In this document: positions 13,454 to 54,808 of the stretch, piece by piece
How positions within the stretch are numbered: the first letter of the stretch is position 1
How the letters are laid out: each line of letters starts with the position of its first letter
Source: Gammaproteobacteria bacterium
Lineage (GTDB): Bacteria > Pseudomonadota > Gammaproteobacteria > Pseudomonadales > Pseudohongiellaceae
Assembly: GCA_002731775.1 (NCBI GenBank)
Contig: PCCP01000082.1
Coordinates: 2,091-66,090, forward strand
DNA length: 64,000 nt
Direction of reading: 5' to 3'
The notes under the pieces: model-generated
The model's input: only the letters and a program-made list of their open reading frames with translations
Told to the model about the DNA's origin: nothing
Database searches by the model: none
Position numbers and translations under genes: made by a program

Positions 13454-13535
13454 AAAGTGGGACAGACTACGGTATTCAATTTCTAAAATATGCGTGTTGC
13501 TGCACTAATAGAAAAACCTGGTCCGTCCCCGATTT
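13454..13535. repeat. R2-type palindromic element (diverged)
   Basis: AAAGTGGGACAGACTACGG ... TGCACTAATAGAAAAACCTGGTCCGTCCCCGATTT. Confidence 0.75.
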
Positions 13536-16526: not shown

Positions 16527-17516
16527 CTACGGTTCTATACCAAGACTTTCCAGGCGTCGAGCGCCAGCCAATATTCCTACCATCCCATAATTTCCTTCAT
16601 GGCAGGCATATTCGTAAATGCGTTCGTTAATCCTTGAAAGTGCGTATTCTCCTGAAAATTGGGCGGTGAAAACCGAAGGGTCGTCCACGGTGAAGCCGTA
16701 TATCATTTTGTTATGGGAATCTCTTCTAAAGGATTCTATGAGAGTGAGATTCTCAGCCGGTGCTCCCCGCATCGATTGCCAGTTGTTGAAGTACCTGGTT
16801 TCGACAACCAGGGTATCGCCTTCCCAGCGTGCTATCGAATCGCCCATCCATTTTCTCTGCGCTTTCGCGGCCGGGTTGTGCTGGTCCGCTATTTTGATAA
16901 TGCGGGTGTCGTGTGACATTTCGGTAGTGATGCTGATGTATCCCGGCGACTGTGAAAACTGCAGGTGGCTATTGTAGATGCTAGGCCGCATAACCGGACT
17001 TGAGAAATTGCCGTTCAACAGACAACGCTCACCCAGACCGCGACCCTCTGGACCATCACTGCGACCGGGCCGCCTGGCCCGTCGCTCACTCATGCGCTCG
17101 CTAAATCCGGCCACACGTTCAGGCATGCGCCCATTTGCCGGGTCTGTAATTGCCGAGGTACGGAATTCGCTGTCAATAGTGGGAATAAACTTCGCATCCT
17201 CGCGCCAGAACAGGTCGTAATTGCCGAGTGGCGGTAAGGATTCAGCAACGTCCGGGGCCGAACGGTCAGGATTCAGCGGCTCATTGGCGGCATCGAAGGT
17301 TTGTTGAACTGCAACTTCGAGTTTGAGAGATTCTGCCTCGGTATACGCACGCTTCTCACCCAGTTCGCGGGGCCTTTCGAAGGGCATAATGGTGGCGTGT
17401 TTCCATACTCCCTGGAAGTCTGGCACACCCCACTCCGTCATCGGACCCACATAGTCCCGTGCCGTAGCAGTACCGGCAATTGTACTAATTATCAGTAAGG
17501 GCCAAAGAATTCTCAT
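16527..17516 (-). CDS. secreted protein of the YEYACHEGNY family (copy 5)
   Basis: Start moved to ATG 17516 (MRILWPLLIISTIAGTATA). Blocks PDFQGVWKH, YDLFWRED, RTSAITDPANGRMP, GERCLL, MSHDTRIIKI, MGDSIARWEGDTLVVET, YEYACHEGNYGM. Confidence 0.85.
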   Translation of the reverse strand: MRILWPLLIISTIAGTATARDYVGPMTEWGVPDFQGVWKHATIMPFERPRELGEKRAYTEAESLKLEVAVQQTFDAANEPLNPDRSAPDVAESLPPLGNYDLFWREDAKFIPTIDSEFRTSAITDPANGRMPERVAGFSERMSERRARRPGRSDGPEGRGLGERCLLNGNFSSPVMRPSIYNSHLQFSQSPGYISITTEMSHDTRIIKIADQHNPAAKAQRKWMGDSIARWEGDTLVVETRYFNNWQSMRGAPAENLTLIESFRRDSHNKMIYGFTVDDPSVFTAQFSGEYALSRINERIYEYACHEGNYGMVGILAGARRLESLGIEP

Positions 17517-17605
17517 CTTGATCCTCCTTATAGAGTCGTCAATGGAGTATAAAGGGCGCCCACAACTTAACAACTTATAGTGCCGAGTGGACACAGCAGT
17601 TCCTG

Positions 17606-17636
17606 AAACTACAGTATTTGTACTCTGACCCATTTA
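17606..17636. repeat. R4-type half-site
   Basis: AAACTACAGTATTTGTACTCTGACCCATTTAT, 19 nt upstream of ATG 17656. Confidence 0.75.
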
Positions 17637-18651: not shown

Positions 18652-18683
18652 AAATTGGGAAAAGACCAAAGCTTAGACTTTTC

Positions 18684-18708
18684 TAAAAACGTGGTCTGTC
18701 CCGAATTT
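18684..18708. repeat. R2-type half-site
   Basis: TAAAAACGTGGTCTGTCCCGAATTT, 13 nt upstream of ATG 18722. Confidence 0.75.
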
Positions 18709-20521: not shown

Positions 20522-20560
20522 TTTTTTCCCTCTCTCTTACTTAATGCAGGTTTGCACAGG

Positions 20561-20595
20561 ATAAATGGGGTCGGAGTAAATATACAGTAGTTTTT
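20561..20595. repeat. R4-type half-site
   Basis: ATAAATGGGGTCGGAGTAAATATACAGTAGTTTTT, 40 nt upstream (minus strand) of start 20521. Confidence 0.75.
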
Positions 20596-21228: not shown

Positions 21229-21245
21229 TAGCGTACTATAAATTG

Positions 21246-21267
21246 TTTTTACTCTGACCCCATTTAC
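21246..21267. repeat. R4-type half-site
   Basis: TTTTTACTCTGACCCCATTTAC, 18 nt upstream of ATG 21286. Confidence 0.8.
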
Positions 21268-24426: not shown

Positions 24427-24530
24427 GGGCAGATTTATTTTCCCGGGCGGCCGCGACCACGGTGCTCGATACGCACGCAATAAATAGGGACAGAACTATT
24501 TTTCTACTGAAAATAAATCTGCCCCTATTT
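24421..24530. repeat. R1-type composite: perfect 22-nt outer inverted arms enclosing a third half-site
   Basis: AAATAGGGGCAGATTTATTTTC (24421-24442) and its exact reverse complement (24509-24530). Inner AAATAGGGACAGAACTATTTTT (24482-24503). Confidence 0.9.
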
Positions 24531-24715
24531 CTTTAAAACAGGTGCAGATCCGCACGCAACCAAGTTACTATATCAAGTGTTTGAAACCTGCTTAAAGTAA
24601 ATAGTTCGAACCAACAGTTATACACGATCAGCCCTGCCATCGGAGAACCTGCATAAAGTTCCAATTTTCGAGAAAGTCAGTCATTGCCACACCACTAGTT
24701 CTACTTTCATTTTTT

Positions 24716-25204
24716 GTGATCGGTCACAGCAATTCTCAGGATGCCGACAAGCAGCTGAGTGTCACAGATGATTTGTTTAAGTGCCTGACTGAGATGACGA
24801 AGTCCAGCGCCGGCGAATTTTTCGTCGATAACATACTGGGGAATCTGCAAGCCACCGTGGCGGTCGCCAACTCCGAAAGTGGGGGGAGCTATCCTGTTGG
24901 ATCTTTAATTTCATTAATTCCAAGCGAAGTCATGATCAAGCACGAAGCTGGCTGGAATGAGCTTACCAACGACTGGGAGTTTTTTGAGCTGACGGTATCG
25001 GAGCAAGGTTCTGAGATTGCTCTACGCGGCACCACCGAAGTAGTCAATCAATTCGGTGGTAATTGCTTCGGCTGCCACACACTGGCACGACCCGAATGGG
25101 ATTTGATTTGTGGAACCGGGCACGGCTGTGCTCCTCTACCAATAGATCGTGAGACTATCGCCAATATTCAGAATAGCGATCCACGTTGCATCAAAGAAAA
25201 CTAA
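24716..25204 (+). CDS. cytochrome P460-family-like heme protein
   Basis: 162-aa GTG ORF. NDWEFFEL ... GGNCFGCH resembles the W.F..F ... CXXCH layout of the P460 family. A hydrophobic leader is encoded upstream without a canonical start (see findings). Confidence 0.4.
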   Translation: MIGHSNSQDADKQLSVTDDLFKCLTEMTKSSAGEFFVDNILGNLQATVAVANSESGGSYPVGSLISLIPSEVMIKHEAGWNELTNDWEFFELTVSEQGSEIALRGTTEVVNQFGGNCFGCHTLARPEWDLICGTGHGCAPLPIDRETIANIQNSDPRCIKEN

Positions 25205-25450
25205 CAACTTGAAATTTTCATGACAGAGCAACAAAAGGTGGCTAAAATCACCACTCTTTTGTGATTCGATTCTCTGCTTCGTTTCGCAACTTCCTGAAAA
25301 TACAGCTAGAAGCAACCAACAAAACTCTTGAGCGTCTTCCTGTAGTGAACAACGATGTTACTGTGACTGTTATGTTGAGCAGCGTTGTCTGCATGACAGC
25401 AGTCATTCACATCGCTGAGCCGTAAACTTAGATAAATCCCGAAAACCACC

Positions 25451-26596
25451 ATGAGGCAAAAAATGTCAATGAATTCCACTTATCTTCAAATGTTTTCCAC
25501 CGTTACCGATGCCGGCGACGTGCGCCTGCAGCTACTCGAAAAGCCAACCCCACAACCCGAAACTAATCAGGTACTGGTGAAGATTGAGGCAACGCCAATA
25601 AATCCTTCAGATTTGGGTGTAATGTTTGGCTTGTCCGATATGGCTAACGCGAAATCATCTGGGGCCGGAAATGATACCGTATTGACTGCGCCGGTATCCC
25701 AGCAGGGCCTCAGGGTGATGAAAGCAAGACTGGGCCAGGCACTGGCTGTCGGTAATGAAGGTGCAGGCACCGTAGTTGCGACTGGTGACAGTGAACTGGC
25801 AAAAAGCCTTGAAGGGAAAATTGTCGCGGTGATGGGAGGCGGCATGTATGGGCAGTATCGATGCGTGGATGCCGCTTCATGTCTGCCTTTGTTAGAGGGT
25901 CATACCGCCAAAGATGGCGCGTCTAGTTTCGTCAACCCACTAACTGCACTTTCAATGATTGAAACCATGAAGTTGGAAGAGCACTCAGCACTCGTCCATA
26001 CCGCTGCCGCATCAAATCTTGGCCAGATGCTAGTTCGAATTTGTCAGGCAGATGGTGTTGAGCTTGTGAATATTGTTCGAAAAGAAGAACAAGCCACCCT
26101 ATTGCGCGACATGGGTGCAAAATACGTGGTCAATAGCAGCTCGGATAGTTTCATGGCTGACTTAACAGATGCCATCCATGCAACAGGTGCTACGCTTGGG
26201 TTTGATGCGACCGGCGGTGGCTCGCTTGCATCCAGTATACTCACTTGCATGGAAGCGGCGGCCGCTCGAACACCTGGCGGCTACAGTATTTATGGCTCGA
26301 TAAAACACAAACAAGTGTATCTCTACGGTGGTCTCGACACCTCTGCCACAGTTCTTAATCGAGGCTATGGAATGGCTTGGGGGGTTGGTGGTTGGTTGCT
26401 GCCGAATTTTCTTGCCAAAGCAGGAATGGAAGTAGCCGCTCGTTTGCGCACCCGCGTAGCCAATGAGTTAAAGACTAATTTTGCAAGCCACTACAGCGAC
26501 GAAATTTCTCTCTCTGAAGCTTTGCAAGCTGAGACTGTACAGCGATACGTGATGAAACAAACGGGGGAAAAGTTTCTGATTTGCCCACAAAAGTAA
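25451..26596 (+). CDS. medium-chain (zinc-type) dehydrogenase/quinone oxidoreductase family protein
   Basis: 381 aa. VLVKIEATPINPSDLGV and GNEGAGTVVATG match the MDR/enoyl-reductase pattern. Confidence 0.7.
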   Translation: MRQKMSMNSTYLQMFSTVTDAGDVRLQLLEKPTPQPETNQVLVKIEATPINPSDLGVMFGLSDMANAKSSGAGNDTVLTAPVSQQGLRVMKARLGQALAVGNEGAGTVVATGDSELAKSLEGKIVAVMGGGMYGQYRCVDAASCLPLLEGHTAKDGASSFVNPLTALSMIETMKLEEHSALVHTAAASNLGQMLVRICQADGVELVNIVRKEEQATLLRDMGAKYVVNSSSDSFMADLTDAIHATGATLGFDATGGGSLASSILTCMEAAAARTPGGYSIYGSIKHKQVYLYGGLDTSATVLNRGYGMAWGVGGWLLPNFLAKAGMEVAARLRTRVANELKTNFASHYSDEISLSEALQAETVQRYVMKQTGEKFLICPQK

Positions 26597-26620
26597 GCAA
26601 TGCCGGAACTAGTGCCGAAC

Positions 26621-26704
26621 TAGGGGACACTAATAGTTTAATAGCTTAACGACAAACTAGCCCTAATCACCAGCCTTAAGCTATTAAACTATTAGTGTCC
26701 CCTA
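26621..26704. repeat. R6: perfect 29-bp inverted repeat with 26-nt loop
   Basis: TAGGGGACACTAATAGTTTAATAGCTTAA (26621-26649) and its exact reverse complement (26676-26704), between convergent genes. Confidence 0.9.
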
Positions 26705-27268: not shown

Positions 27269-27300
27269 GAGAGTACAGGGTCAGGTCTTGCCTGTTAGCA
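27269..27300. repeat. R3-type half-site (GAGAGTACAGGGTCAGGTCTTGCC variant)
   Basis: GAGAGTACAGGGTCAGGTCTTGCCTGTTAGCA. The first 24 nt are identical to 30261-30284. Confidence 0.85.
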
Positions 27301-27381
27301 TGGGAATTAGAAGTAATTCATGCTTGCGCTATAACTCAGATAGAGCCATTTGCCACGGAAGGTTGAGGATACACTTAAGAT

Positions 27382-27561
27382 GTGGTTCGTCATCAGGGAA
27401 AAGCTGTAGACTTTAATCCCCAGCGTAAGCTTCCGTTCCCGCAGATTATCCAGGTAGTAGCAATAGTCATCCGCCTCGACAAACACCGCCTTGCGGTTGT
27501 GCCCTCGCTGCACAATATGGTGCGGTATCCCTGCCACAATAACCCTCGCTTTCCTTGGCAT
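27382..27561 (-). pseudogene. N-terminal fragment of a REP-associated tyrosine (Y1, IS200-like) transposase (RAYT)
   Basis: MPRKARVIVAGIPHHIVQRGHNRKAVFVEADDYCYYLDNLRERKLTLGIKVYSFSLMTNH matches the first ~60 aa of RAYT-type transposases up to the HUH motif. Similarity stops at 27382; the rest of ORF 27307..27561 is unrelated. Confidence 0.8.
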
Positions 27562-27634
27562 GGCTGGCTACCCCCCAAGCAAACTCTACCAGGAATCTTT
27601 AGACCTGCCCGCGTCCTGGTGTCAACCATTCACC

Positions 27635-27694
27635 GAAAATAAATCTGTCCCTATTTACTATATACTTTTGTAATTAGGGACAGCTTTAATTTTG
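27635..27694. repeat. two R1-type half-sites in outward-facing arrangement
   Basis: GAAAATAAATCTGTCCCTATTTAC (27635-27658) and AATTAGGGACAGCTTTAATTTTG (27672-27694). Confidence 0.8.
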
Positions 27695-27712
27695 AATTCG
27701 AGGAATTTCCCG

Positions 27713-28831
27713 ATGAGAAGACTGCTTACCACTATTGCTTGCTTATTTATTGCCGCACCCTGCGCGCTCGCTCAATACGCCCCGCAGATTTCGATTGAAT
27801 CCGTTCCCGACTTCTTTCAGCTACCACAGGGTATGAATTTTGGTGAAGCCTCCGCCATCGCAGTGAATTCACAAGGCCATATTTTTGTATTTCACCGATC
27901 CAACCCCTCTGGGGGTGGCCCCGCTTATGGCATGCATGCTGCGCAGCTATTTGAATTTGATAGCAACGGCCGCTATCAACGAGAACTCGGGCGGGGCTTA
28001 TACGCCTGGTCGTTTGCCCACGGGCTGCGCATAGACAGCAACGACAACATCTGGACCGTGGACAAAGGTTCCAACATGGTGGTGCGCATGGACCCCTCCG
28101 GCAGGGTGGTGTGGGTGTTCGGCAGAAAGACAGAATCGGTATCCGAAGCGGCCCGACCCTTCGAACATGTGGACACACCCCGACCTCCCCAGGATGGCCG
28201 TTTTCGCGAGCCCACGGATGTGGCGGTTGATTCGGCAGGCAACATTTACATCACCGATGGCTATATCAATTCCCGCGTCGCCAAATATGATTACAATGGT
28301 GACTGGGTAAAATCCTGGGGCGAACCGGGAACCGGCCCCGGACAGTTTCGACTCCCCCATAGCATCGCCATCGACAAGGCTGACAACGTCTATGTGGGGG
28401 ATCGTTCCAATGCCCGCATTCAAGTGTTCGACACCGATGGCAATTACCTGCGTGAATTCCGCGTAGCCACCCCGGTGCGTCCTGGCTCGAAGGCGGTTAA
28501 CGGACCCACGCCTACCGAACTCACCGAGATCAGTGCCAACGGCGCCCCCAATTCTTTGTGTATCCCACCGGGCAGCGACGTGATCTTCGTCGGGGAAACC
28601 ACTTTTCCAGGACGCATTATCAAAGCGACCTTACAGGGAGAGGTGCTGGGAGTCATTGGTAATTCAGGTAGGAATCTGGGAGAATTTTCTGGTGCCCATG
28701 GCCTCGCCTGCCCGTCAGAAGACGTTTTGTATGTGGCAGAGACGTCTAATTCTCGAGCGCAGAAGTTGCTTATTGGGGAACAGGGACAGATTTATTTTCC
28801 TGGGCGGGAGCGTCAGCGCTTCAAAAAATAA
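27713..28831 (+). CDS. exported NHL-repeat six-bladed propeller, peptidyl-alpha-hydroxyglycine lyase (PAL)-like
   Basis: Start moved to ATG 27713 (MRRLLTTIACLFIAAPCALA). NHL repeats: HGLRIDSNDNIWTVDKGSNMVVRMD, PTDVAVDSAGNIYITDGYINSRVAKYD, PHSIAIDKADNVYVGDRSNARIQVFD. The last 17 codons lie inside a repeat element. Confidence 0.7.
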   Translation: MRRLLTTIACLFIAAPCALAQYAPQISIESVPDFFQLPQGMNFGEASAIAVNSQGHIFVFHRSNPSGGGPAYGMHAAQLFEFDSNGRYQRELGRGLYAWSFAHGLRIDSNDNIWTVDKGSNMVVRMDPSGRVVWVFGRKTESVSEAARPFEHVDTPRPPQDGRFREPTDVAVDSAGNIYITDGYINSRVAKYDYNGDWVKSWGEPGTGPGQFRLPHSIAIDKADNVYVGDRSNARIQVFDTDGNYLREFRVATPVRPGSKAVNGPTPTELTEISANGAPNSLCIPPGSDVIFVGETTFPGRIIKATLQGEVLGVIGNSGRNLGEFSGAHGLACPSEDVLYVAETSNSRAQKLLIGEQGQIYFPGRERQRFKK

Positions 28832-28846
28832 ATCTGTCCCTATTTA
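28781..28846. repeat. R1-type palindromic element (long form)
   Basis: CAGGGACAGATTTATTTTCCTGGGCGG ... AAAAAATAAATCTGTCCCTATTT. The left arm lies inside CDS 27713..28831. Confidence 0.85.
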
Positions 28847-28875
28847 GAAATTGTGTGTTCAGAGAGGTAGACGAT

Positions 28876-29265
28876 ATGAAGTTTGTGAATAGCCTGGCGC
28901 TTCGAGTACTCGTCGCAGCGGGATTCCTGTTTGCCATTCAGCCCACGATCGCGCACCACTCCTTCGCGGGTTTCAGCAATGATGAAGTCAAGGAGTTCAC
29001 GGGCATCATCAAGGAATTTCAATTCAGGAATCCCCACGTATGGATTCAGATCCTGACAGCAAACGCGGAAGGGCAGGAAGAGGAATGGAGCGTCGAGTGG
29101 GGCTCCCCAAATCAGTTGGGACGGCGCGGTATTCGTCCGACAACGTTTCCACCGGGGGCCGAGGTCACCGTGCGGATCCGACCGATGATCAACGGCTCTG
29201 CGGCCGGCGCGTTCGTCGGAGCCAAGTTTCCCGACGGTACCATCGTCGGCCAATGGGAAGACTAG
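28876..29265 (+). CDS. small exported protein, predicted mature N-terminus HHSFA (DUF6152-like by recollection)
   Basis: Start moved to ATG 28876. MKFVNSLALRVLVAAGFLFAIQPTIA then HHSFAGF. Shares an NPH block (FRNPHVWI) with 30863..31240. Confidence 0.7.
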   Translation: MKFVNSLALRVLVAAGFLFAIQPTIAHHSFAGFSNDEVKEFTGIIKEFQFRNPHVWIQILTANAEGQEEEWSVEWGSPNQLGRRGIRPTTFPPGAEVTVRIRPMINGSAAGAFVGAKFPDGTIVGQWED

Positions 29266-29343
29266 AGCGGTAAACGCTGTTCCCCAGTGCACGCCCTTGC
29301 TGCGTCGTCTTTTTAAAGCGGATGGGTTTTTGCAGGTACGGCC

Positions 29344-30255
29344 ATGCATGGGAGGGGCCGTCCGAACGGTAGCGAAACCATGGAGAAACGGATTGTCATG
29401 ACGGTTACATTAAGACACAGGCACAACACTCTGCGCCCATTTCAAACGGCAAGCGCCCTGCTTGTGAGTCTGGGCATAATTATCCTGCTCCTACCGAAAG
29501 CTGGTTACGCGCAAGAGGGAGATTCTCTCCCCGACTGGAGCGGCGTTTGGGCCATGAACGGTGGAACGGTCTTCGACCGAGCCACAGTTGAGGGCCGGGG
29601 CGGATCGAACACGCCGGGCGTGCGAGAACATCCGCCGTACAACGCAGAATATGAGGCGACGTATGTACGCAACCTGCAGCTTCGTGATGACGGATTGTTC
29701 CCGGATCCCTTATCCTTCTGCGGGATTCCTCCCGGGTTCCCGCGGATCATGAATATGCCTGATGTTTACGAGTTCGCGGTGACCCCCAAACAAGTCTGGA
29801 TCATGACTGAAAATGGACCGGGTATCCTGAGGATCTACACAGATGGCCGCGAACATCCGGATCCTGAGATGATGTGGCCCACTCATACCGGGGATTCGGT
29901 AGGGCATTGGGAAGGCGATACGCTGGTGTTCGACACGGTAAGTCTTCACAGTTCGGTCGAGGGCCGGACGATCCTTGATCGCACGGGCCTGTACCTGAGC
30001 GATGCGGCACACATCGTCACGCGAATGCGTAAGCTTGACGACGAAACAATAGAAGCCCAGATGACGATAGAAGACCACAAGGCTCTGACGGCGCTATGGG
30101 TCGTGACCAAGACGTACCGGAAACTGGAGGAGGAAACGCGTGTGTACGACTACGCTTGCGCCGGGAACAACCGAAATCCAGTGGATGTAGAAAACAACCG
30201 GACGCTGATTCTGGGCCCCGACGGGGAAATTCTAAACAGCGATATTCAGCGTTAG
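29344..30255 (+). CDS. short divergent relative of the YEYACHEGNY family (ends VYDYACAGNN)
   Basis: 303-aa ORF (start may be ATG 29398). LPDWSGVWAM, FCGIPPGFP, GDSVGHWEGDTLVFDT, VYDYACAGNNRN parallel the family blocks. Confidence 0.7.
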   Translation: MHGRGRPNGSETMEKRIVMTVTLRHRHNTLRPFQTASALLVSLGIIILLLPKAGYAQEGDSLPDWSGVWAMNGGTVFDRATVEGRGGSNTPGVREHPPYNAEYEATYVRNLQLRDDGLFPDPLSFCGIPPGFPRIMNMPDVYEFAVTPKQVWIMTENGPGILRIYTDGREHPDPEMMWPTHTGDSVGHWEGDTLVFDTVSLHSSVEGRTILDRTGLYLSDAAHIVTRMRKLDDETIEAQMTIEDHKALTALWVVTKTYRKLEEETRVYDYACAGNNRNPVDVENNRTLILGPDGEILNSDIQR

Positions 30256-30260
30256 GGGAA

Positions 30261-30284
30261 GAGAGTACAGGGTCAGGTCTTGCC
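30261..30284. repeat. R3-type half-site (direct copy of 27269-27292)
   Basis: GAGAGTACAGGGTCAGGTCTTGCC, 8 nt before the RAYT fragment. Confidence 0.85.
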
Positions 30285-30292
30285 CACTGCCG

Positions 30293-30376
30293 ATGACCAA
30301 TCACTACGATCTATTGATCGAAACGCCCGATGCGAATCTTTCTGTGGGAATGCGCCATCTCAATGGCGTTCACACC
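30293..30376 (+). pseudogene. internal fragment of a RAYT/Y1 transposase (HUH region)
   Basis: MTNHYDLLIETPDANLSVGMRHLNGVHT matches LMTNHYHLL.ETP..NLS.GMR.LNG.YT of this transposase family. HUH is degraded to H-Y-D. Similarity ends about 30376 where the IS3 stub begins. Confidence 0.7.
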
Positions 30377-30384
30377 CTGCCCAG

Positions 30385-30714
30385 TCAGACTTTTTTAAGC
30401 CAGTTGTTGCGCGAGTACAATTCAGCGACAACTTGTTTGAGGTCATTGTTTTCCTTCTTGAGATCCACCACTTTATCACTGCTGGCTTCACGAACGGTAT
30501 CACCAGACAAACGTTTCTTTCCGGCTTCAAGAAACTCTTTGCTCCCTCGGTAATAGAGATTGGCGTTGATCCCTTCACGACGGCATAACTCTGCCATCGA
30601 ATACTCACCCCGTAATCCGTCTAGCACAATGCGGATTTTCTCTTCGGACGAAAACTTGCGTCGAGTATTACGGCGAATATCCTTGACGTATTTTTCGGTG
30701 TTTGACATGCTCAT
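30385..30714 (-). mobile_element. IS3-family orfA (HTH transposase part) stub; orfB missing
   Basis: MSMSNTEKYVKDIRRNTRRKFSSEEKIRIVLDGLRGEYSMAELCRREGINANLYYRGSKEFLEAGKKRL.. is typical IS3/IS911-type OrfA. AGAGGAG RBS. An A6G run lies 3 nt before the stop. No orfB follows. Confidence 0.75.
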
Positions 30715-30862
30715 TTCGAGACTCCTCTGCTTCACATTAAAATAGCAGATATGTCTCTTAGTGAATTAGGCTAAATGGTCTAATATGGGCTGACGGCGAA
30801 CACTTGTATATTAGCCAGATTATGGAAATTCCCGTCTTTTAGGGGAATTCTGGGGAAATGCC

Positions 30863-31240
30863 ATGAGGATACTCATTAATTGTCTGACCCTACTCGGTCT
30901 GATTACTCATGTGATGAATGCCGCAGCCCATCACAGTTTTGCTGCAGAATTTTCCTATGAACTGTTCGGCACCAAAGACGGCGAAGTTGTCGAGGTGCAC
31001 TACGTTAATCCTCATACCCGCGTTTTCATCGCCGTCACCAATGAGAACGGTGAAAAAGAAATATGGGATGCACAGACCCATGCCGTCAGCATGCTGCTCC
31101 GCGCTGGCTGGAGAAGGGACACTCTCAAGGTAGGTGAAAGAGTTATGCTCCAGGGCAACCTGGGACTAGAAAATAGTCGAAAGTTGTGGATCAGGACGAT
31201 GACCCTGGAAAACGGCACCGTCATTACACCTGATGATTGA
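30863..31240 (+). CDS. small exported protein, predicted mature N-terminus HHSFA (second copy)
   Basis: 125 aa. MRILINCLTLLGLITHVMNAAA then HHSFAAEF. NPH block YVNPHTRVF. Paralog of 28876..29265. Confidence 0.7.
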   Translation: MRILINCLTLLGLITHVMNAAAHHSFAAEFSYELFGTKDGEVVEVHYVNPHTRVFIAVTNENGEKEIWDAQTHAVSMLLRAGWRRDTLKVGERVMLQGNLGLENSRKLWIRTMTLENGTVITPDD

Positions 31241-31654: not shown

Positions 31655-32266
31655 GTGAAAACAATTAGTTTTTTTGCCCTTTCGGTTTTGTTACTGAGTT
31701 CCTGTACGTCATCTACCGCACAATTTCAGGTGGGCCAGATTAGAACCGCTATGGGAGATATATTAATCTGGTTGTACCAGGACGTGCCTGAGCACAGAAT
31801 CAATTTTATCGAATTGGCCGAGGCCGGTTATTGGGATGACTACACCTTTAATCGGGTGATAGAGGGTTTCGTGGCTCAGGGCGGATGCCCGGACACACCG
31901 GAAGGTTTTGCCTATTCCATTCATCTTCTGGAGCCAGAGTTTCGAGAGAACTTGAAACATGTTTACGGCACCTTTGCGGCGGGCCGCGATGATAACCCCG
32001 GAAAGCTATCTGCGGGCTGTCAGTTTTATATTGTCCAGGACCCCGAAGGTATTCCTCGGCTGGATAATAATTACACGATCTATGGGCAGGTCTTTCGAGG
32101 TATGGACGTCATCGAATCAATCGTAAGAGTAGAAACTGATTCAGCCGATGCGCCACTGGAAGACATCGAACTGGACGTGAATGTGGTCCAAATGACCCGC
32201 GCGGCTATTGAGGCCAGCGGTTTTGAAATTCCGTTAGGGAACTGCGGGTCAGGTCTTGCATGTTAG
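31655..32266 (+). CDS. cyclophilin-type peptidyl-prolyl cis-trans isomerase lipoprotein
   Basis: Start moved to GTG 31655 (VKTISFFALSVLLLSSCTSS lipobox). FNRVIEGFVAQGG, AGCQFYIV, YTIYGQVFRGMDVIESI. The last 7 codons and the stop lie in an R3 repeat. Confidence 0.75.
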   Translation: MKTISFFALSVLLLSSCTSSTAQFQVGQIRTAMGDILIWLYQDVPEHRINFIELAEAGYWDDYTFNRVIEGFVAQGGCPDTPEGFAYSIHLLEPEFRENLKHVYGTFAAGRDDNPGKLSAGCQFYIVQDPEGIPRLDNNYTIYGQVFRGMDVIESIVRVETDSADAPLEDIELDVNVVQMTRAAIEASGFEIPLGNCGSGLAC

Positions 32267-32304
32267 CACTCCTGATTTTCCCGCTAACATGCAAGACCTG
32301 ACCC
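32246..32304. repeat. R3-type palindromic element, perfect 22-bp arms
   Basis: GGGTCAGGTCTTGCATGTTAGC (32246-32267) and GCTAACATGCAAGACCTGACCC (32283-32304). Confidence 0.9.
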
Positions 32305-32345
32305 TGTATTCGTTAAGTTGTTAAGTTGAGAGTGGCCTGGAATAT

Positions 32346-32885: not shown

Positions 32886-35507
32886 ATGAAATATTTACGC
32901 GCCGCGGAGCGCTTCCTGGTAGTCGTAATTGTGGCCCTGGTGCTGCCCTCAACCCTTGCCGCCCAGGCGCCTGCGCCGAGTGACGTTTTCGGTTTTGAAC
33001 CAGGAGATGACTACAAACTGGCCAGTTACGATCAGCTGCTGGAATACTATCGGCAGCTTGACGCTGCGAGCCCACGAGTGGTCTTGCAGGAAATTGGTAA
33101 TACGGTGCTGGGTCGACCATTGCTGCTATTGCTTATATCCAGTGAGGCCAACCTGGCTCAGCTGGATCGCTGGCAACAAATTAGCACCGATTTGGCAACC
33201 GCCCGAATCGACGAGGAAACGGCACGCCAGTACGCCAGGGAAGGCAAGGCTGTCGTCTGGATCGATGGTGGTCTGCACGCCACGGAGGTTGCGCCGTCAC
33301 AGATGTTGCCTAATTTAGCGCACCATATGGCGACCGATGAGAGTGAAGAAACACGACGCATTCGTGACAACGTGATCCTGCTGCTGATGCCCAGTATGAA
33401 TCCAGATGGCCTGGAAATAGTGCGCAACTGGTACCAGCGTAACCTCGAGACACCATTTGAAACCACACGACCTCCGGAACTCTACCACCACTATGTCGGA
33501 CATGATAATAATCGCGACTGGTTCATGAACAACATGCCAGAAACAGCGGCTGTCAGCAAAGTGCTTTACCAGCAGTGGTTTCCTCAAATCGTTTACAATC
33601 ATCACCAGAGCGGACCATCCTGGGCGCGCATTTTCCTGCCGCCTTTTTCCGACCCGGTAAACCCTAACATACATCCCGGGGTAACTACCGGTGTTAACCT
33701 GGTTGGCTCAGCCATGTCTAACCGTTTTGCCATGAAGCAGATGCCAGGGGCAGTGTCAGACATGACCTTCAGCATGTGGTGGAATGGTGGCATGCGCACC
33801 GTACCCTATTTTCACAACATGATTGGCCTATTGACTGAAACTTCTCATGCAACGGCGTCACCACGTTATTACGATCCTGAAGAACGACCGGAGCAGGTGG
33901 GGAATCCCCGGCGTGGGCAGTCGGCTCCTACCAGTGGCGAGGATATTTTCTATCCCTACCCCTGGCCCGGAGGTGATTCCCGCTTCAGTGATCCTGTGCG
34001 GTACACCTTCACCGCTTCCATGGCGGTGCTTGATATCGCCGCGGATCTCAAGGCGCGCTGGCTCTATGGTATTTACTCTATGGGCCGAGACGCCATCGCC
34101 GCGGCGGATGAGAATCGTTTTGCCTATGTGATCCCAGCTCAGCAATGGGACCCGCAAGAGGCCCGAAATCTGGTGGAGATCCTCATGCGCGGTGGTGTGG
34201 AAATTGAGAGCGCCAGTGAATATTTTTCCGCAGGCGAACATAACTTCGAAGCTGGCTCACACATCATCTATGGCAACCAGGCATTCAGAAATTACGCTAT
34301 CGACCTTTTAGAGAAACAGAGCTACCCGGACCGGCGCCGCACGCCCGATGGCCCGCCAGATCCCCCTTACGATCTTGCCGGCTGGACTCTGCCCATGCAG
34401 ATGGGGGTGGAAGTCATGCGGATCGATGAGGCTTTCTCCGCCAGCAGCCAGGCGCTTTCAGGCTTTCCTGACATCGAACCCGGATCGGTGTCCGGTGATC
34501 CCGGCTTCGGCTTTGCCTTCTCGTCTCAGACCAATGCTAATGTCCACGCGCTCAACCGCCTGACTCGCGCCGGTGAACGTGTGTTCCGGAGTGAGCAGGG
34601 TTTTACTGCGGGCAGCACAGATTTTCCGGCAGGAAGCTACATCGTTGAAAATCAGGGTCAGAATACTGTTTACCGGGTGAATGCAGCGGCAGCAACATTG
34701 GGCTTGGATTTTGTTGGTTTGAGTAGCAGATCGAATGTCGCGCTTACGCTGCAAGAACCTGTACGGGTTGGACTGTACAAGTCCTGGGTAGCGAACATGG
34801 ATGAGGGCTGGACGCGTTGGTTACTCGAGAACTATGAATTCGAGTTTGAAACATTGCTCGATCGGGATGTGCGCGAAACCGATCTATCCCGCTTCGATGC
34901 GATCCTGTTACCTAGTCAGGATGCGGCCTCGCTGCTGAATGGACACACGCCCGGTACCATGCCGGACGAATATGTTGGGGGGCTAGGTCTCGCGGGCGCC
35001 CTCGCTCTCAAGCAATTCGTGGAAGCCGGCGGCACACTGGTCACGCTTGATGCCGCCAGTGATTTCGCAATTAAGCAGTTCGGATTGCCAGTCGAGAACA
35101 CCGTCGCTGACACCACAGACCGTCAGTTCTTTATTCCCGGTTCTCTGATTCGTGCCAAAGTGGATACCAGCCATCCCTTGGCAGCCGGAACGCAAGAAGA
35201 ATTGGCTACCTCCTTCGTGAACAGTCGTGCGTTTGAAGTTGTGACTATCCCTCGTACTCAGGAAGGCGGTGAAGAACAGACACCGGAGCCGCCAGAGCAA
35301 CCAGTGGAAACCATTGTCAGTTATGCAAAAGAGGATATTTTGATGAGCGGCTGGGCTCTCGGGGAAGAAGAATACATCGCTGAGAAGGCGGCCATGATGA
35401 AGGTCCGCCTGGGTGAAGGTAGTGTTATCCTGTTCGGGTTCCGGCCCCAGTTTCGAGGTCAGCCACGGGCGACGTATAAATTGCTATTCAATTCGCTGCT
35501 GCAATAA
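32886..35507 (+). CDS. secreted M14-family zinc carboxypeptidase (large form)
   Basis: 873 aa with signal peptide. VVWIDGGLHATEVA and HHYVGHDNNRDWF are the M14 zinc/active-site blocks. Confidence 0.8.
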   Translation: MKYLRAAERFLVVVIVALVLPSTLAAQAPAPSDVFGFEPGDDYKLASYDQLLEYYRQLDAASPRVVLQEIGNTVLGRPLLLLLISSEANLAQLDRWQQISTDLATARIDEETARQYAREGKAVVWIDGGLHATEVAPSQMLPNLAHHMATDESEETRRIRDNVILLLMPSMNPDGLEIVRNWYQRNLETPFETTRPPELYHHYVGHDNNRDWFMNNMPETAAVSKVLYQQWFPQIVYNHHQSGPSWARIFLPPFSDPVNPNIHPGVTTGVNLVGSAMSNRFAMKQMPGAVSDMTFSMWWNGGMRTVPYFHNMIGLLTETSHATASPRYYDPEERPEQVGNPRRGQSAPTSGEDIFYPYPWPGGDSRFSDPVRYTFTASMAVLDIAADLKARWLYGIYSMGRDAIAAADENRFAYVIPAQQWDPQEARNLVEILMRGGVEIESASEYFSAGEHNFEAGSHIIYGNQAFRNYAIDLLEKQSYPDRRRTPDGPPDPPYDLAGWTLPMQMGVEVMRIDEAFSASSQALSGFPDIEPGSVSGDPGFGFAFSSQTNANVHALNRLTRAGERVFRSEQGFTAGSTDFPAGSYIVENQGQNTVYRVNAAAATLGLDFVGLSSRSNVALTLQEPVRVGLYKSWVANMDEGWTRWLLENYEFEFETLLDRDVRETDLSRFDAILLPSQDAASLLNGHTPGTMPDEYVGGLGLAGALALKQFVEAGGTLVTLDAASDFAIKQFGLPVENTVADTTDRQFFIPGSLIRAKVDTSHPLAAGTQEELATSFVNSRAFEVVTIPRTQEGGEEQTPEPPEQPVETIVSYAKEDILMSGWALGEEEYIAEKAAMMKVRLGEGSVILFGFRPQFRGQPRATYKLLFNSLLQ

Positions 35508-35509
35508 AT

Positions 35510-35582
35510 AGGGACAGACCACGTTTTTCGATTTCAGAGACTGGCTAATTGCCGTCCGAATAGAAAAACGTGGTCTGTCCCT
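35510..35582. repeat. R2-type palindromic element, perfect 20-bp arms
   Basis: AGGGACAGACCACGTTTTTC (35510-35529) and GAAAAACGTGGTCTGTCCCT (35563-35582), between convergent M14 and S9 peptidase genes. Confidence 0.9.
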
Positions 35583-35591
35583 AGTTTTGTT

Positions 35592-50367: not shown

Positions 50368-50425
50368 AAAAATGAGACCAGAGTAAATATACAATACTGT
50401 ATAATTACTCTGACCCCATTTATAA
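50368..50425. repeat. R4-type palindromic element (compact)
   Basis: AAAAATGAGACCAGAGTAAATATACAATACTGTATAATTACTCTGACCCCATTTATAA. The right arm ends 19 nt before ATG 50445. Confidence 0.8.
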
Positions 50426-54651: not shown

Positions 54652-54740
54652 CAAAAAATGGCGATAGACCATGTTGTTCTTATTGTGTGGCGAGATTGCT
54701 GGCGTCTAAGACAGAAAAACGTGGTCTGTCCCCATTTTTC
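54652..54740. repeat. R2-type palindromic element (left arm degenerate)
   Basis: CAAAAAATGGCGATAGACCATGTTGTTC ... GAAAAACGTGGTCTGTCCCCATTTTTC. Confidence 0.75.
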
Positions 54741-54808
54741 TTGAAGACGTGGACTTAAACAGAGATAACTTCTATTCTTCCTGGAGACAAGTATCCAGGG
54801 GTACTGCC

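Follow-up and report, generated by a model that had tools for sequence, protein, structure and literature searches.

Probable relics of two different Y1 transposase genes and their inverted repeats in a rearranged intergenic stretch of a Pseudohongiellaceae genome

Two short open reading frames (ORFs) that resemble Y1 transposases of the HUH superfamily lie about 3 kb apart and on opposite strands in a 64,000-nucleotide stretch of contig PCCP01000082.1 from an uncultured marine gammaproteobacterium of the family Pseudohongiellaceae, and each of them adjoins an identical 24-nt copy of a repeat named R3. Such an arrangement raises the question of whether a single transposase gene was broken or copied by its own repeats, or whether remains of different mobile elements have come to stand close to each other. 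The original prediction, based on this stretch (the window, meaning the whole 64 kb), favoured the former: a transposase of the REP-associated type (REP, repetitive extragenic palindrome) was split or duplicated by a repeat-mediated rearrangement or insertion, the two pieces bracketed a 3-kb gene module, and R3 was the cognate REP. The analysis presented here leads to a different answer. Two distinct Y1 (HUH) elements of the type known as TIRYT (Y1 transposase genes with flanking terminal inverted repeats) were probably acquired independently and have decayed at this locus, where they lie together with what is left of an IS3-family element; the intergenic DNA that holds them has undergone repeated rearrangement.

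Two fragments and two transposase lineages

The 24-mer GAGAGTACAGGGTCAGGTCTTGCC is present on the plus strand at 27269-27292 and 30261-30284, and a scan of the window with up to 3 mismatches gave no third match. The chance expectation is nil (0 matches in 100 shuffles), and the shared identity amounts to exactly 24 nt, with not one base more on either side. The minus-strand ORF (27561 to 27307) opens with MPRKARVIVAGIPHHIVQRGHNRKAVFVEADDYCYYLDNLRERKLTLGIKVYSFSLMTNH, the start of fragment 1 being MPRKARVIVAGIPHHIVQRGHNR, and the plus-strand ORF that begins at 30293 opens with MTNHYDLLIETPDANLSVGMRHLNGVHT, fragment 2 reading HYDLLIETPDANLSVGMRHLNGVHT. What had been claimed from the letters alone is correct in these respects: there are two direct copies of the 24-mer and none elsewhere in the window, each beside a piece of a Y1 transposase; the four codons common to both pieces, MTNH, are spelled differently (ATGACGAACCAC and ATGACCAATCAC); and the HUH motif of fragment 2 has decayed to H-Y-D, as homologues have NHYHLL at the place of its NHYDLL. 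Fragment 1 had been described as ending at residue 60. It is indeed an N-terminal piece of a Y1 transposase, but its homology reaches codon 61 (H-I), ending after CACATC, and beyond this point the ORF adds 24 codons without detectable transposase similarity. Joined end to end, the two fragments match the Pfam family Y1_Tnp (PF01797) with 24.3 bits (E=3.7e-5, cut-off 23 bits); taken singly, neither matches any Pfam or NCBIfam model, even at E<=10. Both lack an intact HUH motif, as fragment 1 stops after H-I and fragment 2 has H-Y-D, and both lack the tyrosine region (Y..NP). They are pseudogene relics, non-functional members of the Y1 (HUH) superfamily.

The protein comparisons assigned the fragments to two lineages, distinguished here by the motifs NHVH and NHYH. 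Fragment 1 is 84, 72 and 69% identical to three proteins of the NHVH lineage and 23-32% identical to NHYH-lineage proteins. Fragment 2 shares 86, 86 and 79% identity with NHYH-lineage proteins and about 36% with the NHVH lineage over its full 28 residues, of which otherwise only the first 10 align. Since the identity is 23-36% across the lineages and 69-86% within each of them, the fragments belong to two different lineages. By this comparison they come from separate genes, as corresponding pieces that have codons 57-61 in common, and are not halves of one. The proposed derivation from one gene, split or duplicated, is therefore contradicted, and one half of the refuting outcome named with the prediction, an assignment to clearly different lineages, was obtained. 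Aligned to their relatives, the fragments are neither the parts of a split gene nor two copies, one lineage having proteins of about 230 aa (NHVH) and the other of about 281 aa (NHYH).

The features of the fuller-length relatives agree with this assignment. The protein search with fragment 1 gave 67 database relatives, most of them with PF01797, among listed proteins of at most 105 aa only, and fuller-length copies came from related genomic loci. After the motif these relatives continue as ..LMTNHVHL(I/V)VEPxxDxxxISxLMKxLAxRQT. The closest genomic copies, L011 and L012, are frameshifted genes of about 230 aa with 83-85% identity (85% by tblastn), in which the motifs NHVH (NHVQ in L012), MWESRYK and RYVERNP are found. 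For fragment 2, 402 relatives were obtained at E<=0.001, many with PF01797, and in the full-length ones, which have 270-288 aa, residues 57-84 are matched at 79-86% identity. Their N-terminus reads MARPLRLEFxGALYHVTxRGN, unlike the MPRKARVIVAGIPHHIVQRGHNR of fragment 1, and their C-terminal end is a helix-turn-helix (HTH). The annotated 287-aa transposase of a Legionella adelaidensis plasmid, reading ..YCLMSNHYHLLIETPLGNLSKGMQYLNGVYTQRFNR.., is 72% identical to fragment 2 over 29 residues, and P0201 and similar proteins have NHYH, FQGRYK, RYIVLNP and a C-terminal ..HYSxVSRIV helix-turn-helix. A profile built from 281-aa NHYH homologues placed fragment 2 at positions 57-84 with 43.8 bits, and fragment 1, weakly, at 1-61 with 21 bits. 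One further match of the fragment 2 search, P0332, is a 279-aa predicted protein in which two incomplete copies of the NHYH lineage precede an N-terminus of NHVH type (MPRKPRFYLPGIPAHIVQRGN..), so that relics of both lineages are found together here as well.

Repeat families and the lineages they accompany

Two families of short repeats, R1 and R3, are abundant in the window. The R3 core GGGTCAGGTCTTGC has 16 matches at up to 3 mismatches (1.9 expected) and R1, GGGACAGATTTATTTT, has 19 (0.5 expected), the density in 64 kb being about 20 R1 arms and 16-18 R3 arms. Most repeat copies stand in inverted pairs. The R3 core occurs at seven sites, five of which are such pairs (12679/12737, 20607/20630, 32246/32290, 47539/47584 and 53213/53268), and only the two sites of the 24-mer are unpaired half-sites. 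An R1 pair is situated at the end of the NHL-repeat gene that lies between the 24-mers, and one R1 copy just upstream of fragment 1. Where two copies are paired, the DNA forms strong hairpins (z -5.8 to -10.2; R3 pairs, z -7 to -10), while the fold at the unpaired 24-mers is not significant (z -0.9 and -0.65). The heads read ..GTACAGGGTCAGG and ..AAATAGGGACAG; both fit, by their letters, the pattern GGGGWSAS, and the foot of the hairpins has no GT[AG]G. The NCBIfam model REP_Tyr_transpos gave 16.4 bits only, against a cut-off of 80.

At least two more families of dispersed hairpins with similar heads, GGGACAGACCACGTTTTTC and GGGGTCAGAGTAAAAA, are present, with sites such as 35506-35586, 13454-13529, 18673-18708 and 54702-54746, and 20558-20593, 21234-21266 and 50390-50423. 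These further families may belong to more transposase lineages. A perfect 29-nt inverted repeat (TAGGGGACACTAATAGTTTAATAGCTTAA, 26 nt, then the complement) was also observed at 26621-26704, downstream of the ADH gene. The same inverted repeat stands upstream of the neighbouring gene in a related genome (L036, reverse complement 2104-2193), so that a hairpin family shifts its site between close relatives.

The relation between repeats and transposases becomes apparent at the intact homologues. In all four distinct intact NHYH homologues, R3 in the form GGGTCAGG(T/C)CTTG is located 51-117 nt upstream of the ATG, in the same orientation as the copy at 30261. The form GGGTCAGGTCTTG is found at -52 in P0201 (on two contigs, L051 and L052), at -51 in L053 and at -53 in L054 (Nitrosococcus halophilus), and on the Legionella plasmid (L038) the form is GGGTCAGGCCTTGCC, at -117. 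The stop codon of three of these genes is overlapped by an inverted R3 copy (..AAG ACC TGA CCC). A C-terminus ending in -KT, which 86 of about 110 full-length NHYH homologues possess, is consistent with such an overlap of the 3' repeat. A metagenome scan with the R3 20-mer GTACAGGGTCAGGTCTTGCC returned six stretches, too few for counting the insertion sites of a cassette: two from the species of the window, one from a relative (L049), and L045, L046 and L048. In L045, an NHYH-lineage gene ends as ..AKGKT and stop inside three tandem R3 copies, and L048 contains a plain R3 hairpin. L046 has the identical 24-mer, about 35 nt, a 32-codon N-terminal remnant (IEYSGALYHLTTWGDRQVAIYHNGGDRERFLE, 29 bits) and then an inverted R3-like arm. 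The G+C content is 53.5% in the window, 51% in L046, 58% in L045 and 37% in L048; L046 may or may not be another organism, and the occurrence of R3 across genomes is documented by L045, L048, Legionella and Nitrosococcus.

At the loci of the NHVH lineage, the corresponding position is taken by R1. The R1-type sequence GGG(G)AC(A/G)(G/C)ATTTATTT precedes the start codon by 37-170 nt at 11 of the 12 NHVH loci from gammaproteobacteria (L011 to L019, L021 and L022), which come from metagenome-assembled genomes labelled Cellvibrionaceae, Halioglobus or unclassified Gammaproteobacteria and from Marinobacter genomes. R1 copies occur on both sides of the gene in L012 (2910+/3572-), L017 and L022. The motif GTAAATAGGG(A/T)CAGATTTATTTTCGG of L011 and L012 lies 91 nt upstream of the ATG, and in the window the motif has the same distance from the start of fragment 1, the R1 repeat being situated about 75 nt upstream of this ATG. 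Because of these upstream and flanking arms at intact homologues and related loci, R3 is, on the strength of its position in related sequences, the cognate repeat of the NHYH lineage of fragment 2, and R1 that of the NHVH lineage of fragment 1. The prediction that R3 is the cognate repeat thus applies to one of the two fragments. The flanks of NHYH homologues carry it in four of four cases; those of the NHVH loci carry R1 instead, and neither repeat corresponds to the classical definition of a REP.

History of the locus

Fragment 1 is part of a 392-bp hybrid cassette (27269-27660), which consists of an R3 arm, a 79-nt spacer, the transposase stub (codons 61 to 1), its leader and an R1 arm, with the repeat heads directed outwards at both ends. 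The left R3 arm continues like the other R3 copies of the window (families D6 and D16), and the homology to the related loci L036 and L049 begins here; the first ~15 nt of the spacer resemble the loop of the R3 pair at 32233-32311. In L036, a related genome in which the ADH region is 97% identical, the same junction ..ATGACGAACCACATC/TTAA.. (the junction sequence of the cassette being ATGACGAACCACATCTTAA), the same spacer and the same R3 end were found, with 91% identity on the R3 side and an extra internal deletion of its own. There, the cassette sits between the orthologues of window positions 24516-25205 and 25126-26608, which are contiguous in the window, so that the window has the empty site. 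It is flanked by an 80-bp direct duplication (L036 1749-1828 and 2126-2206, with 3 mismatches, corresponding to window 25126-25205), which represents the 3' end of the gene upstream of the cassette and is far longer than usual target duplications. In the more distant relative L049 (~89% identical), the cassette stands at the same site as in the window, beside a 167-aa gene, and has another internal deletion, in which the PHHI codons are joined to the tail via the repeated CCACATC. L036 has the same stub, junction and R3 end at a different locus, one at which the window is uninterrupted. Fragment 1 was therefore truncated before the present arrangement came about, and not through a local event in which fragment 2 took part.

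The two halves of the cassette differ in their divergence. The leader (27562-27635) is ~85% identical, by eye, to that of L011 (L011 2910-3000). The leader with the start of the stub is 75% and 71% identical to L036 and L049 in blastn, whereas the R3 half is 89-91% identical; this mosaic suggests exchange with another copy and may reflect gene conversion. The spacer, examined over 27293-27381 as a possible decayed continuation of the NHVH gene, showed no significant similarity to its downstream parts. Comparison with the N- and C-terminal parts of NHYH proteins and with the NHYH profile also gave nothing significant, the best pairwise score being 35 versus 30 +/- 3 for shuffled sequences.

The 3-kb stretch between the 24-mers had been viewed as a module. 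Its predicted gene content was confirmed, namely the NHL/PAL-like gene, a gene then labelled HHSFA that belongs to DUF6152, and a 303-aa ORF (YxYAC). However, its comparison with the contexts of relatives and with L049 provided no evidence that it moved as a unit, nor do its interior genes appear from it as cargo. Orthologues of the NHL gene (92% and 81% identical) occur in unrelated contexts, with homology to the window confined to 27710-28800, and no empty cassette site was found at these two loci. In L049, 1.5 kb of extra genes separate the cassette from the NHL gene, and window positions 27676-27792 are conserved beside the NHL start. The segment 27.3-30.3 kb is accordingly not a conserved unit, as foreign contexts, other genes inserted in L049 and a cassette existing elsewhere without these genes all indicate. 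The identity of the two 24-mers is no sign of local duplication either, because L046, a contig without any other similarity to the window, has the same 24-mer beside a decayed NHYH-lineage element, and because the 20-mer core is present in contigs of 37% and 58% G+C. Judged from these sequences, the 24-mer is the conserved outer part of the R3 repeat in both places, not a local copy. Moreover, two R3 sites at a distance of 3 kb are unremarkable when there are seven R3 sites per 64 kb.

On the right-hand side, fragment 2 is separated from its R3 arm by 8 nt only, whereas intact genes have 51-117 nt from the start of the R3 core to the ATG. From this spacing, a deletion of about 200 nt, comprising the leader and codons 1-56, is deduced. 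The homology of fragment 2 stops at 30376, and the IS3-family relic begins at 30377. On the minus strand, this relic has an outer TG-initiated end, TGTTCGCCGTCAGCC.., at 30803, an orfA (HTH_Tnp_1, E=2.7e-11; NCBIfam IS3 model, E=1e-8) and an A AAA AAG slippery site that was read from the sequence; orfB and the second end are missing. As three contigs of the same species (L008 to L010, ~13090) diverge from the window exactly at 30803/30804, this junction is polymorphic in the population. In these three contigs, a gene for a TonB-dependent receptor stands in place of the second DUF6152 gene, which in the window is located at 30863-31240, just right of the IS3 relic.

The most probable course of events would be the following. 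The elements concerned would each have consisted of a transposase gene between two inverted repeat arms with GGG(G)WSAG heads directed outwards, and short derivatives consisting of arms only would be the many intergenic hairpins of the genome, presumably moved by a transposase acting in trans. In the element of fragment 1, which kept its own leader and R1 arm on the 5' side, a deletion starting inside the HUH motif would have joined the stub to an unrelated R3 arm, and the resulting hybrid cassette would have carried its truncation already when it settled at the various sites where related genomes now have it. In the element of fragment 2, an internal deletion would have brought codons 57-84 beside its own 5' R3 arm, and the IS3-family element, later truncated itself, would have cut off the 3' side. 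Several observations do not sit easily with this course of events. The breaks of the two fragments fall within one and the same run of five codons, MTNH(I/Y), and no mechanism for this was found; two independent deletions in genes of 230-280 codons would share such a break by a coincidence that we roughly estimate at a few per cent. The 79-nt spacer between fragment 1 and the R3 arm can be assigned to neither transposase, and the leader half of the cassette is far more diverged from L036 and L049 than the R3 half, which implies a history beyond one deletion. The 80-bp duplication in L036 is unexpected for a Y1 enzyme of the "peel and paste" kind. Finally, no intact copy of either transposase was found from this species to which the presumed activity in trans could be assigned; the scan of genome contigs did not return the locus of the window itself, and the species representative seems to be without it.

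Other explanations would account for some of these observations. An inversion that split a single gene at the MTNH codons, or a duplication and inversion of the gene with its breaks there, would fit the opposite strands of the fragments, their overlap of just 4-5 codons, and the way in which the left N-terminal piece points left and the right piece points right, as an inversion with one breakpoint in the gene would produce. The identity values across and within the lineages are nevertheless incompatible with a common gene, and the same stub, junction and tail occur at another locus of L036 where no NHL module adjoins. Reversal of the inversion yields ..MTNH-MTNHYD.., a doubled motif in a chimeric gene. 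As this reconstruction mixes the lineages and doubles the motif, the inversion model was rejected, and an origin from one gene is extremely improbable. The common break could also be explained if the hybrid cassette arose by recombination of an NHVH-lineage with an NHYH-lineage element at the conserved stretch coding for the HUH motif (ATGACnAAyCAC, 10 of 12 nt identical), followed by internal deletion. The cassette has R1 on its 5' and R3 on its 3' side in the canonical outward geometry, and its R3 arm reads ..ACA GGC AAG ACC TGA, the same K-T-stop ending as at the 3' repeats of NHYH genes. The spacer, however, has no detectable NHYH similarity, either pairwise or against the profile, two events are needed where one deletion suffices, and fragment 2 itself is left unaccounted for, which makes this origin of the cassette quite unlikely.

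A single local event might instead have delivered or duplicated the 3-kb stretch, through integration of a circle at R3 or through one-ended, read-through transposition from the R3 end of the cassette that carried the NHL, DUF6152 and 303-aa genes along. The 24 nt are identical even at positions that vary among the other R3 copies of the window, the two copies are both unpaired and in direct orientation, and the NHL gene is in a foreign context relative to its 92% and 81% orthologues. Against this, the identity ends exactly at the 24-mer without any shared flank, the identical 24-mer occurs in the otherwise dissimilar L046, the left copy belongs to a cassette that exists by itself elsewhere, the additional 1.5 kb in L049 is not compatible with a fixed unit, and R3 sites are common. 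An event of this kind is regarded as unlikely. With a little more chance, although still unlikely, the 392-bp cassette may be a non-autonomous element that can still be mobilised, moved in trans by a TIRYT enzyme which needs only the common GGG(A/T)CAG head, and the L036 site with its 80-bp duplication would then be a natural transposition. If true, the route of transposition would differ from the duplication-free "peel and paste" of the IS200/IS605 elements. The decay of two independently acquired elements beside an IS3-family insertion remains the reading that we prefer, and the features on which it is based are listed in Table 1.

Table 1. Coordinates of the features between the left R3 arm and the end of the IS3-family relic (window positions).
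Feature	Position	Strand	Remarks
R3-type inverted-repeat arm, 24-mer and TGTTAGC	27269..27299	+	unpaired; outer end of the hybrid cassette; exact 24-mer
Spacer between R3 arm and stub	27300..27378	-	ORF runs into it as ..LSVSSTFRGKWLYLSYSASMNYF and stop; 89-91% conserved in L036/L049
Fragment 1	27379..27561	-	codons 1-61 of a Y1 transposase assigned to the NHVH lineage (TIRYT / TnpA-Y1 subclass 2.1), cut within the HUH motif after H-I
Leader of fragment 1 and its cognate R1 repeat (27636-27660, minus strand GTAAATAGGGACAGATTTATTTTC)	27562..27660	-	opposite cassette end, where the similarity to the cassette of L036 stops
Second R1-like half-site, facing the cassette	27677..27692	+	part of the region upstream of the NHL gene
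NHL-repeat PAL-like gene	27713..28831	+	Pfam NHL, E=1.8e-24; 3' end enters the R1 hairpin 28783-28840 (z -6.3)
DUF6152 gene (HHSFA)	28876..29265	+	Pfam PF19649, E=3.8e-25; called as a gene in same-species contigs
303-aa ORF (YxYAC)	29344..30255	+	called as a gene in same-species contigs; no Pfam or NCBIfam match
R3-type arm (24-mer)	30261..30284	+	place and orientation of the 5' inverted repeat of an NHYH-lineage element; 8 nt remain before fragment 2
Fragment 2	30293..30376	+	codons 57-84 of a Y1 transposase assigned to the NHYH lineage, HUH mutated to HYD; 82-86% identity to full-length proteins
IS3-family relic	30377..30803	-	outer inverted repeat TGTTCGCC.., orfA, A AAA AAG frameshift site; orfB missing; truncates fragment 2

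Some observations on the genes around the fragments were made in addition. The NHL protein has a C-terminal extension of ~16 aa (..GEQGQIYFPGRERQRFKK) that is encoded by the R1 hairpin at its 3' end. Its orthologues, of 355-357 aa, stop just before an R1-like hairpin (..LVIK and stop in L040); the usual head AAATAG provides the NHL stop and reads GGAACAG in the window. The extra segment of L049 (181-1710), absent from the window, is bounded by R1-like repeats and contains, as named by reading the ORF translations, a BrnT/BrnA-like toxin-antitoxin pair and a 231-aa gene with a YecA/SEC-C motif. Within the minus-strand ORF 16527-17633, the stretch 16798-16844 shows 79% complementarity to positions 29890-29936 of the 303-aa ORF, which suggests that the two ORFs are paralogues. 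The DUF6152 and 303-aa ORF genes may form a small paralogous family in the genome.

Relation to known elements

The elements reconstructed here belong to a kind already described. Y1 transposase genes with flanking terminal inverted repeats were named TIRYTs, or TIRtrons, by Di Nocera et al. (2013; PMC3733652). Many of their repeats have GGGGWSAS in common and keep a similar spacing to the gene, others reach into its 3' end, and families of dispersed single and dimeric repeats exist that were called "moderately abundant" (PMC3733652). Most TIRYTs were placed by Quentin et al. (2018) in TnpA-Y1 subclass 2.1, which corresponds to RAYT (REP-associated tyrosine transposase) Group 1 of Bertels (Table 1 in PMC6006769). 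The subclass is characterized by the motifs NHVH or NH[YF]H, W[EQ] or FQ, and YIELNP or Y[IV]HLNP, and by a C-terminal HTH, and no canonical REPs with a GT[AG]G foot were found for it (PMC6006769). Compared with the signature motifs of the subclass, a length of about 240-290 aa and an optional C-terminal HTH, the closest fuller-length relatives agree with it, the fragments of the window having the N..H part only. As judged from these motifs, both lineages fit subclass 2.1, and the relics of the window represent a known kind of element. Like TIRYTs, the homologues are Y1 proteins of ~230-290 aa with the HUH, W[EQ] or FQ, and Y..NP motifs and in some cases a C-terminal HTH; their genes are flanked by GGGGWSAS-headed repeats, the 3' repeat extending over the gene end, and single or paired copies are dispersed both in homologues' genomes and in the window. 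Unlike described TIRYTs, the window has only dead stubs, of 61 and 28 codons, the former as part of a hybrid R1/R3 cassette, and its repeat density is high in comparison with the "moderately abundant" families of the 2013 survey.

A likeness to the REP and REPIN systems of RAYTs (TnpA-REP of E. coli and the REPINs of Pseudomonas; PMC3116915, PMC3479197, PMC5581495) is also evident. In both, a Y1 gene is bracketed by repeats that it is thought to mobilise, inverted pairs are dispersed as intergenic hairpins, and each transposase lineage has its own repeat family. In contrast to these systems, the arms found here are not self-complementary and do not fold singly, and they have a GGG(G)WSAG head but no GT[AG]G foot. 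The proteins are longer and of subclass 2.1, whereas the classical REPtron subclasses are 2.2, 2.4, 2.5, 2.7 and 2.8. The label "REP-associated" is therefore right in spirit, although the classical definition of a REP does not apply. With the IS200/IS605 elements and their deletion derivatives, the locus shares the catalytic superfamily and the decay by internal deletion to short non-autonomous forms, of which L046 (arm, 32 codons, arm) represents an intermediate. The differences are the lack of a tnpB, ends formed by inverted repeats instead of distinct left and right subterminal hairpins, and copies that are not near-identical and multicopy.

Summarizing, the results leave the known mechanism of such elements unchanged and describe how mobile elements of a known kind decay in the ordinary way. 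In annotation, these short ORFs can be named as relics of distinct TIRYT-type transposases, and the abundant hairpins of the genome (R1, R3 and their relatives) as the matching repeat families. For two branches of subclass 2.1, a clean pairing of repeat and lineage is obtained, GGGACAGATTTATTT with NHVH and GGGTCAGGTCTTG with NHYH, and in the NHYH branch the last two codons and the stop are supplied by the 3' repeat. The locus demonstrates the course of decay (arm, remnant, arm) and marks a hot spot of rearrangement, and the inverted repeats of subclass 2.1 reach a REP-like density in some marine gammaproteobacteria.

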